Shown: positions 39,554 through 42,324 of the stretch, piece after piece
Position numbering within the stretch: position 1 is the stretch's first letter
Layout: every line of letters begins with the position of its first letter
NCBI RefSeq assembly: GCF_003334785.1
Contig: NZ_QOWV01000024.1
DNA length: 42,324 nt
From: Escherichia coli
GTDB taxonomy: Bacteria > Pseudomonadota > Gammaproteobacteria > Enterobacterales > Enterobacteriaceae
Reading direction: 5' to 3' (one strand)
Made by a program: the position numbers

Positions 39554-42324
39554 TGTATTCAGGGCAAGATTACGAAAGCCCGCTCCCCGCAAGGACTGAC
39601 GCCAGATAGTTTCTGTCCATGGCTGCTTTTCGCATCTTACGTCTTAACCCTGCCTTGAATACCTTATCATTCGTCAAAATATTAATAGCAATGTGCCGTA
39701 TCCCTGAAAATAATTCTGCTGCATTTCCTCTTCTTATTTTGCAGTCGTCTTCATTCATTACCACGTCCAGACGCCAGTGCAGCTTATTCTCCACGTGCCA
39801 GTGATTTCGGATCGCTGTGGCGAATTTCTCAGCGGTTAAATCAGCAGAACTGATATAATATCTGACCGTCATTTCTGGCTCTTTCTTTTGTTCTGCTATT
39901 ATGGACCGAAAGGAGACTGCCACGCATAATTTCTTCAGCCCTTTCCATTCAAACGTGAAATCAATAAGTTCATCAGGGACATCGCAAACAATATGAAGAC
40001 GGATTTCTTCTCTGCCGTGACTCTTTTCACTCATTGCGTAACTGTCATGCTCTGGATTATTTAATTCTTTCAGCGGAAATTTTTCCTCAAAGGCTTTATT
40101 TAGCCGCCCCTGGTTTCCTTTTACCGCGAATAAATAATCACCTCCCTGTTTTTGTATCTTCTCTGCAATATCTTTCTGGCAACCCATCGCATCAGTTGTG
40201 ATGATTTTTCCTTTAATATCCAGCATGTTAAGAAGTTCTGGGATAGCTGTAATCTCATTAGATTTCTCATCCGTCTTGATCTGTCCGATGACCAGACTGT
40301 GCATTGTTGAGAACGCACTAATGACATGAATCGCTCCCCTGCGGCGACTCTTGTCATAAGAGTGCCGGAGCGTTTTTCCATCAATTGCAATGACGTCTTT
40401 ATCATCTGAAGAATGGCAGTCACGCATCCAGTTAATAAAGCACTCGTGAAATTTTGCAGGACTGATACAGGATACAACTCTGGCAATGGTATCGTGAACA
40501 GGAATACCATTTTCAAAATCACCATATTGCTTCAAAAAATCGGGATGTGTTTCCCCAAAATCCTCTATATCTTCCCAGCCTTCTGCACCAGAAATAACGG
40601 CACAAATAGTCAACAGTAGAATATCTGACAATTTATGTTCCACTTTCCAGGCTTGTCTGTAATCGGGGATAATAGAAATATGTTCCATCAATTTTTTAAG
40701 TTCCATTTTGTTCTCCTTAATTATGTAAGAAGTATTTGATCATGTATAAGCAATAAAAAACAGCTTCAGGTAATAAGGAATATCTCAATTTTTAAACATA
40801 AAATGCGAATTATTTAGTGCAAAAAGTGAACTTTTGATGATCTTTCCCTGGCCGTTGACTCGATTGCCGTAGCTCGAACGCAAGCACTCTTATCATTCAA
40901 TGCCATATTGTTCAAAATATTAAAAACATTATCTTCGCATTTTTTGCAAATTTATATTTGCCCGAGTATAAATGCTCCGATATCTCTACGGATATAATTT
41001 TTGTCAGTGCAGAATTCAATTGCCAATCTAACAGCGTCTTGCCCCCCTCTTAACTGTAATACTCTGGCAGATGAAATCCTTTTCAAGGAATTGCGATCAT
41101 CAAGTAAGCGAAATAATTCATCATCATTTAGTTTCTTACATTTATTATATAAACCATACTCTTTACTTGCCTTTCTTTTCTGGTATGTATTTGACATTGC
41201 AGGAACCTCCATAAAGGCTATCTTTTTCTATCGTTTGACTGTCTGGAGTCCTCCACCTACTCTGCCATCAGCGCACACGATGTTTGATTATCCTTACATA
41301 CTTATTTTCCGTGGCCAAAATTCAGAATTCTCCCATCATTTTTGCCTATTTCTATAATAAAAACCCCACCAGCAATTTGGTCTGAGTGAATGGTACCTTC
41401 AACAACCCAACTTGTTGTTAACTCAGTGATTTCGTATGGTTTTTCTTCTTCTGCGGCATCCTGTCCATAACGATTCTTAACATATATCTCAGCTAATTCC
41501 AATGCTATAGCTTTATTTTTAACCAAATTTCTAACGGTATATTTACCTTCACTTTCATACTTGCGCATTATTTTAATATTATTATTACACTGCGCCCATG
41601 TGTTGTATGTAAAAACAAACAAAGATACAATGACACAGTTCCTAAATAATATTTTTTTACATATTACCATGAACTCTGCAGACATTAGGTAATCCTTTTC
41701 TGTTTGTTATTTCCTTCCCGTGGTTATCTATTGCTTTAAAATTACCACTGGGCGTACCTAAATAAAATGACTTGATATTGTTATCTTTACTTTTAACTAT
41801 TTTCTCATCTTTACCTGAAAATATTTCGTCCCAATATTCTCCATGACTATCTGCACCATGAGTATGATAAGCTGATACTTTCTCAGTACCATTAGGGCAA
41901 GGGCTATTGAATGGATATGATCCTTTTCTTTCTCCTCGGTTAGGTGCTGTTGAGAAATATCTGCCACTATTATCCTTACATATTAAACCAGCGAACTCTT
42001 TATCTTCGCAAATAGATTGGCTATTTATTTTATTTAAGGCGCCATATGCGGTGCTATCTATAGAATCAAATTTATCTGGACCTATCATAGCGGATAGTGT
42101 GCCGCAAAGACCATTAGTACATGCCCCCGATTTTGCATCCTCCCACATAGATAAACCCAGGGGGTCGATGTCTGATATCGGATTCAATTGATATCCATAC
42201 AGGTTCCATCCCCCCTTCAGTCCAATCGGATCCTGAGTGATATATCGCCCCTGCAGCGGGTCATAATAGCGGTGGCGGTTGTAATACAGGCCGGACTCCT
42301 CATCATACTGCTGCCCCGGCAGGC

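Follow-up and report, generated by a model that had tools for sequence, protein, structure and literature searches.

Near its right end, a 42,324-nucleotide stretch of Escherichia coli DNA (RefSeq assembly GCF_003334785.1, contig NZ_QOWV01000024.1; hereafter the window) carries an 86-codon open reading frame (ORF) on the minus strand, between the immunity gene yhhH and an ISAs1-type transposase gene. This locus raises the question of which gene the ORF belonged to and what ended it. The first-pass annotation of the window had described the ORF as a truncated HEAT-repeat protein related to YibA and as the relic of a displaced orphan toxin/immunity module, possibly cut by the insertion sequence (IS) or by recombination. 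As described below, the ORF is very probably part of a non-functional stub, codons 1–115 of a second yibA copy located at the rhsB locus, the product of yibA being paired with the C-terminal toxin of RhsA.

A yibA stub closed by a nonsense codon

The ORF listing of the window gave an 86-aa frame with an ATG start, as flagged (Table 1). In a phmmer search of PDB sequences, this ORF matched YibA (1OYZ_A, 280 aa) with E = 9e-47, and residues 6–86 of the ORF were aligned with YibA residues 1–81, with 78 of 81 positions being identical (approximately 96%). Thus, the longer homologue presumed by the first-pass annotation exists. At the nucleotide level, 339 of 347 positions were identical to K-12 yibA, covering codons 1–115 and the first 2 nt of codon 116. 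On the NCBIfam profile NF007244 (PRK09687 'putative lyase', the YibA equivalog), the fragment covered positions 1–81 of 285 (E = 2.8e-31) and scored 108.9 bits, which was below the curated cut-off of 275 bits set across the approximately 285-position profile; full-length YibA (locus L003) scored 462.7 bits. The fragment is therefore closely identical to E. coli YibA, and its partial score and coverage mark it as the N-terminal piece of a member of this family, not an intact member.

The HEAT-repeat similarity proposed earlier was found to be real at the level of the family. The fragment alone gave a marginal match to HEAT_2 (Pfam PF13646, E = 0.094), and its assignment to the HEAT family is made because full-length YibA matches HEAT profiles (HEAT_2, E = 3.4e-6; HEAT_PBS, PF03130, weak at 0.018). 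In the PDB sequence search, residues 31–86 of the ORF were also aligned with pairs of designed alphaRep HEAT repeats (best E = 1.5e-6), and 'two HEAT-like repeats' is a reasonable description of what the ORF would encode.

The second ATG, at 41197, is probably the true start codon; YibA begins there in 1OYZ, in MG1655, and in the PGAP annotation, and the first five codons of the ORF (ATGGAGGTTCCTGCA) hold a GGAGG ribosome-binding site for this ATG. At the other end, the ORF is closed by an in-frame nonsense codon at 40954–40952, where the AAA of YibA Lys82 has become TAA. The AAA was kept in each full-length yibA examined, namely, those of K-12, EM22-18-53, CEC15, OkiPb01714, 602687, and A1_136. 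When the minus strand was translated beyond the stop, the reading ...AFILGQI, stop, ICKKCEDNVFNILNNMALNDKSACVRATAIESTA corresponded to YibA residues 74–116 in the same frame. Thus, in-frame yibA homology runs for 33 more codons, or 101 nt, past the TAA to position 40851.

The eight differences between the stub and K-12 yibA over 347 nt comprised four synonymous, three missense (Q19K, H35R, and S64T), and one nonsense change (K82 to stop), and all eight were private to the truncated copy. Full-length yibA copies from both loci differed from one another at only 0–4 of 843 nt. This near-invariance extended even to loci whose adjoining yhhH differed by approximately 7.6%, which suggests homogenisation of yibA by gene conversion, or a recent sweep. 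The TAA and the truncation at the IS were both present in every truncated copy inspected, and neither was present in any full-length copy. Two plus-strand ORFs lying over the stub (41001–41357 and 41071–41214) run antisense to sequence that is accounted for by homology to yibA and yhhH.

The junction of yhhH, stub, and IS was found in 1812 of 5426 complete E. coli genomes, presence being defined as a match of a 701-bp junction query at a coverage of at least 80%, and an exact 61-mer with the TAA was found in 1778 genomes. The stub was identical among the window, MG1655, DH1, and BL21-RIPL, and no difference between the window and MG1655 was detected between 40731 and 41646.

The feature is already known, as pseudogene yrhC (b4552) between yhhH and yhhI in K-12 MG1655 and as a HEAT-repeat pseudogene in PGAP. 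The stub shares its position, flanks, 246-bp extent (41197 to 40952), and sequence with yrhC; the ORF of the first-pass annotation opens 15 nt further upstream, at an in-frame ATG overlapping the ribosome-binding site, and is otherwise not different in substance. In all truncated copies inspected but one, PGAP reports a 'HEAT repeat domain-containing protein' or 'lyase' with 'internal stop; missing C-terminus'. The exception, P276M ('frameshifted; missing C-terminus'), is an assembly in which frameshifts are annotated in neighbouring genes too. An identification of the ORF as yrhA interrupted by IS1E was considered and found to be wrong, as yrhA/IS1E lies at 3.58 Mb according to the IS1 paper and MG1655 has yrhC at this position. 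Literature searches on yrhC, and on YibA with HEAT and immunity, returned almost wholly unrelated results.

Table 1. Coordinates of the stub, the insertion sequence, and the neighbouring features in the window
Feature	Coordinates	Strand	Basis
Flagged 86-codon ORF, stop included	40952..41212	-	ORF listing; residues 6-86 correspond to YibA 1-81
Pseudogene yrhC (b4552) as in K-12: yibA codons 1-81 plus TAA	40952..41197	-	MG1655 246-bp annotation
Nonsense codon TAA replacing Lys82 (AAA)	40952..40954	-	Alignment with full-length yibA copies
Untranslated yibA continuation: codons 83-115 plus 2 nt of codon 116, reading ICKKCEDNVFNILNNMALNDKSACVRATAIESTA	40851..40951	-	Translation and alignment
ISEc1 (H-rpt), ISAs1-family element, 1291 bp; imperfect terminal inverted repeats CAGGGAAAGATCA... 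/ CAGGGCAAGATTA...	39560..40850	-	Ends shared with other ISEc1 copies
yhhI transposase CDS, ISAs1 family	39570-40706	-	NF033564, 417 bits (cut-off 70 bits)
Flank between IS right end and yhhJ	39406..39559	.	IS junction same in strains with full-length yibA
20-nt rhsA-yibA spacer with GGAGG ribosome-binding site	41198..41217	-	Alignment
RhsA toxin gene relic: last 32 nt of rhsA CDS, including TAG stop at 41218-41220	41218..41249	-	Homology to K-12/EM22 rhsA-yibA
yhhH, NTF2-fold immunity gene	41302..41685	-	Pfam Imm-NTF2-2, E=3.4e-26
rhsB 3' end: end of Rhs core plus DUF4329 C-terminal domain, running off the window	41657..42324	-	TIGR03696 / RHS_core; DUF4329, E=2.1e-39

The upstream junction and the relic of rhsA

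YibA (b3594; PDB 1OYZ) is a HEAT-repeat protein encoded directly downstream of rhsA, and the growth inhibition caused by the C-terminal region of RhsA is reported to be neutralised by full-length yibA (Poole et al. 2011, PMC3150448, citing Vlazny & Hill). The earlier description of YibA as an Rhs-associated immunity protein thus has support in the literature. Homology of the window to the rhsA–yibA region of K-12 and EM22 opens at 41249, 32 nt before the rhsA stop, and everything upstream of this point belongs to the yhhH module. Over the relic and the spacer (41198–41249), 49 of 52 positions were identical. Accordingly, the stub stands where an RhsI protein is expected, directly downstream of the end of its cognate rhs gene with the native spacer, although the tip itself is gone. 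Compared with the yibA of the rhsA locus, the stub lacks codons 116–280, has a stop at codon 82, and is preceded by yhhH and not by an RhsA-type tip.

The alignment with rhsA revealed no remnant of a toxin domain ahead of the stub beyond these 32 nt; the stub and its relic therefore do not form a full orphan module of C-terminal toxin (CT) and immunity gene. Like the orphan rhs-CT/rhsI modules known as 'C-terminal tips', the stub follows the main rhs/immunity pair and derives from an older pair, which is consistent with C-terminal displacement. However, typical orphans (PMC2935791, PMC3150448) keep a piece of the rhs core with PxxxxDPxGL, a complete toxin tip, and an immunity gene that is intact, whereas at this locus the toxin gene is reduced to 32 nt and the immunity gene to 41%.

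C-terminal displacement in rhs genes was described by Jackson et al. 2009 (PMC2935791), in whose paper the names yibA, yhhH, and H-rpt do not appear, and by Poole et al. 2011 (PMC3150448). The scar upstream of the stub is what such a displacement predicts, as yibA would have been orphaned when a new tip with its immunity gene took the place of the RhsA tip; yhhH is presumed to be the immunity partner of the toxin that displaced RhsA-CT, the C-terminal one of RhsB. The same succession of yhhH, 52 nt, rhsA tail, and yibA was found in the rhsB loci of the type seen in strain A1_136 (92% identical) and in rhsA loci carrying an RhsB-type tip, yhhH, and an intact yibA (CEC15, OkiPb01714, and 602687). 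With the end of rhsA and the spacer preserved upstream and full-length versions present in other strains, the proposal that the ORF is a relic of a displaced toxin/immunity module is supported.

At the rhsA locus of OkiPb01714 and 602687 (locus coordinates 2459–7996), the gene for an RhsB-type Rhs protein is intact and stands together with yhhH and with yibA, which is an intact orphan there. Thus, the same toxin/immunity cassette sits at different loci across strains. In the window, the end of rhsB overlaps the beginning of yhhH by 29 nt (41657–41685).

Insertion sequence junctions and longer arrays at the rhsB locus

The profile matches in Table 1 uphold the placing of the ORF between yhhH and an ISAs1-type transposase gene. 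The element itself, ISEc1 (H-rpt), has the transposase, imperfect terminal repeats, and discrete shared ends of the ISAs1 family. Other ISEc1 copies sampled from the E. coli genome collection (at the ydcC and ybfD loci, among others) matched the window from 40850 through 39560, and a match of 1292 bp to an ISEc1 copy of CEC15 agreed with these ends. The search for inverted repeats did not recover the short imperfect IS ends, which were read directly from the sequence. It did give a 21-nt inverted repeat with 81% complementarity (39555–39575 / 39642–39662), in which the right terminus of ISEc1, together with five bases of flank, pairs with a site 66 nt within the element.

On the left side of the element, yibA homology ends after ...GAGTCAACGGC at 40851, and the next base opens CAGGGAAAGATC..., flush with the IS left end at 40850. 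The breakpoint of the gene thus coincides exactly with the end of the element, which was one of the checks proposed in the first-pass annotation. On the right side, no yibA similarity was found beyond the IS end, from 39559 downward, and the sequence leads into yhhJ. The flanks of the element (...GTCAACGGC on one side and AATACAGGAC... on the other) lack the target-site duplication that would be expected of a simple insertion. This absence is not diagnostic because the CEC15 ISEc1 copy likewise lacks one. That copy lies inside the rhs core at the rhsA locus (4882–6173), with 195 bp of the core missing at the insertion point.

Three further observations concern the element and its surroundings. 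The flank between yhhJ and the IS (39472–39560) gave a 94% match to a site beside an IS1397 (IS3-family) transposase gene in another genome, and may be a dispersed repeat. In a 4.3-kb comparison, 9 of the 12 differences from MG1655 and 6 of the 10 from BL21-RIPL fell inside the IS (window 40543–40730), a clustering that suggests exchange among ISEc1 copies. In VTB97584v (6574–7341), IS1 stands in place of most of ISEc1 (window 40777–39659 being absent), and the yibA stub is untouched.

A longer array was found at the same locus, between nikR and yhhJ, in A1_136, AR_0006, and Survcare321. These arrays share with the window the junction of yhhH, relic, and yibA and the right-hand ISAs1/yhhJ junction. 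They open with the gene of an Rhs protein that bears a different tip, followed by its downstream genes; next come, in order, a yhhH homologue with a frameshift, a yibA intact at 843 bp, an orphan fragment of rhs, further DNA, an ISAs1 element, and yhhJ. A full-length homologue thus exists at this very Rhs locus, as had been sought. The DNA between the orphan fragment and the ISAs1 element holds a sel1-repeat gene and an IS630 scrap in A1_136, and IS1 in AR_0006 and Survcare321, in which the rhs fragment is shorter. The resident ISAs1 element of all three strains has an internal deletion of 713 bp (corresponding to window 40319–39607) and keeps both ends.

BLAST comparison with A1_136 located the difference. 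Window 41743–40848 was colinear with A1_136 through yhhH into yibA (92.4%), window 40856–40320 corresponded to the left 537 bp of the A1_136 ISAs1 element, 2.18 kb further on, and window 39606–38000 corresponded to the right 46 bp of that element plus flank. The left IS junction differs between the two, whereas the right junction, CTTGCCCTG followed by AATAC(A/C)GGACTGAG, is common to the window and the A1_136-type locus (L008). A longer array at the same locus, with the same IS beside yhhJ, argues for a deletion of approximately 2.18 kb and not for a simple insertion. The simplest reading is that this DNA was deleted flush with the IS left end in the lineage of K-12 and B, with the IS in place at the locus edge beforehand. 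The absence of any C-terminal tip at rhsB in K-12 and B (Archer et al. 2011) is consistent with loss by deletion. Consequently, the suggestion that the IS had cut the orphan module stands for the gene, whose homology is cut at the IS end. It does not stand for the ORF, which ends at a nonsense codon 101 nt earlier, nor for a plain insertion, for which a deletion is to be substituted.

The flanks of the A1_136 element (AATAAAGG and AATACCGG) matched at 6 of 8 positions, and its left flank AATAAAGG matched the window right flank AATACAGG at 7 of 8. This likeness may be a decayed 8-bp target duplication of the original insertion.

From these comparisons, which show the homology, the breakpoints, the nonsense codon, and the longer arrangement, we infer the following order of events. 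First, an rhs gene with an RhsA-type tip and yibA would have had its tip displaced by an incoming RhsB-type tip (DUF4329) with yhhH. Of the old toxin gene, only the final 32 nt would have remained, ahead of the spacer and a yibA that was intact but orphaned, with more orphan tips downstream. An ISAs1-family element (ISEc1/H-rpt) would have lain at the right edge of the locus, beside yhhJ. Subsequently, a lineage including K-12 and B would have lost approximately 2.18 kb flush with the IS left end, comprising yibA codons 116–280, an orphan rhs tip, its sel1-repeat immunity gene, and an IS630 scrap. The resident IS may have mediated this loss as an adjacent deletion, or a second IS copy, having inserted in yibA, may have recombined with it. 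Finally, the stub would have drifted, acquiring the eight private substitutions, among them the change of Lys82 to a stop that gives the ORF of 81 or 86 codons.

Several observations weigh against this history or against the lack of function of the stub. Transposition of H-rpt/ISEc1 has reportedly never been observed (Archer et al. 2011), which weakens the step of IS-mediated adjacent deletion. The A1_136-type long locus is approximately 7.6% divergent in yhhH and is thus a cousin of the window locus, not its literal ancestor. In the translated part of the stub, three missense changes stand against three synonymous ones, which is too few to show neutrality. Moreover, the ribosome-binding site and start codon of the stub are still good, and an 81-aa peptide could still be made.

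The strongest alternative retains the deletion and changes its mechanism: a second ISEc1 copy inserted in yibA would have recombined homologously with the resident H-rpt and excised the DNA between them. We consider this plausible, if somewhat short of probable. The absence of observed H-rpt transposition counts in its favour, and the window IS is intact (1291 bp), whereas the resident element of the A1_136 type is internally deleted. The A1_136 element was 94.6% identical over the left 537 bp and 97.8% identical over the right 46 bp and flank, which fits a chimeric or replaced element. A median of six places per genome matching the 701-bp junction query, among genomes with any match, also counts in favour of this mechanism. 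However, both mechanisms leave an IS flush at the breakpoint and without target duplication, and nothing discriminates between them; another ISEc1, that of CEC15, lying beside its 195-bp deletion, suggests that the element tends toward adjacent deletions.

Possible cassette exchange between rhsA and rhsB and possible roles of the stub

In the case of the CEC15-type cassette at the rhsA locus, the left flank of the stub (42322–41198) differed at 3 of 1125 nt, whereas the stub itself differed at 8 of 347 nt (Fisher p = 7e-4, CEC15). The rhsA-locus cassettes of CEC15, OkiPb01714, and 602687 were 99.7% identical to the K-12-type rhsB locus and were joined to a resident-type yibA, and the divergence switched inside the first approximately 100 nt of the shared yibA sequence (41249–41143). 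It is possible that this step reflects faster decay of the pseudogene, or a crossover in the first approximately 100 nt of yibA as the cassette of RhsB tip and yhhH moved. That the dead stub still acts as a downstream homology arm, moving the RhsB-type tip and yhhH between rhsB and rhsA, is a tentative proposal that we regard as rather unlikely.

In the single record of BL21-RIPL (4400–5694), the 3' two-thirds of the rhsA-locus yibA are fused head-to-head to the rhsB tip, with the junction at 4972/4973. Either the two loci have exchanged ends through an inversion, or the record is misassembled. The fusion was set aside as a source of the stub, as it occurs in 1 of 5426 genomes and its junction lies approximately 55 bp past the right end of the window.

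The stub might also have been retained because it is useful, either as an 81-aa mini-protein (a partial immunity protein or decoy) or as a homology patch for recombination between rhsA and rhsB. Its intact ribosome-binding site and start codon, its presence in nearly invariant form in about 1800 genomes, and the contrast between the left flank (3–4 differences in 1125 nt from CEC15, OkiPb01714, and 602687) and the stub (8 in 347), which fits a crossover in the first approximately 100 nt of yibA homology, speak for such a use. We nevertheless judge it improbable. The peptide would comprise 81 of the 280 residues of a HEAT solenoid, the nonsense codon is fixed, and faster pseudogene decay beside selected genes could also account for the jump in divergence. 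Moreover, the untranslated tail (40851–40951) is as conserved among genomes as the translated part, and the conservation therefore reflects recent common descent, not selection.

It is very unlikely that the stub was copied as a fragment from the rhsA locus into the rhsB locus, by ectopic gene conversion or illegitimate recombination, instead of decaying where it stands. In favour of this reading, rhsA and rhsB are classic partners in unequal recombination (Jackson et al. 2009, PMC2935791), and the full-length yibA copies at both are almost identical. However, the A1_136-type rhsB loci share the upstream junction (92% identical) with a full-length yibA at the same position, so the arrangement is old at the rhsB locus; the right end of the stub is the IS end and not a homology boundary; and the eight changes of the stub are private with respect to all present-day yibA alleles of the rhsA locus. 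Least likely of all is a simple insertion, in which ISEc1 jumped into an intact yibA and so truncated the ORF: the exact coincidence of the homology end with the IS terminus (40851/40850) favours it, but a point mutation ends the ORF 101 nt ahead of the IS, the DNA past the other IS end runs straight into yhhJ without yibA similarity, no target duplication surrounds the IS, and the right-hand junction is the same in strains with an intact yibA 2.2 kb away.

Nothing suggests an RNA element or a regulatory site on either strand: the scan for promoters and terminators over 39350–41750 gave no more sites than shuffled sequence, and the Rfam search over 39300–42324 found nothing at E ≤ 1.

Taken as a non-functional remnant of yibA, the stub is a textbook-style fossil of Rhs tip replacement followed by an IS-bounded deletion, and its import beyond a tidy annotation is small. 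Its value is modest and lies in the recognition that the ORF stop is a point mutation and not the work of the IS. Moreover, the deletion of approximately 2.18 kb would have taken a whole orphan toxin/immunity pair, which would account for the absence of C-terminal tips from rhsB in K-12 and B. The stub may also have been a crossover site for the exchange of cassettes between rhsA and rhsB. If it still acts as a homology arm, immunity-gene relics would not be mere debris; as anchors for recombination, they would influence the choice of toxin displayed at each rhs locus.

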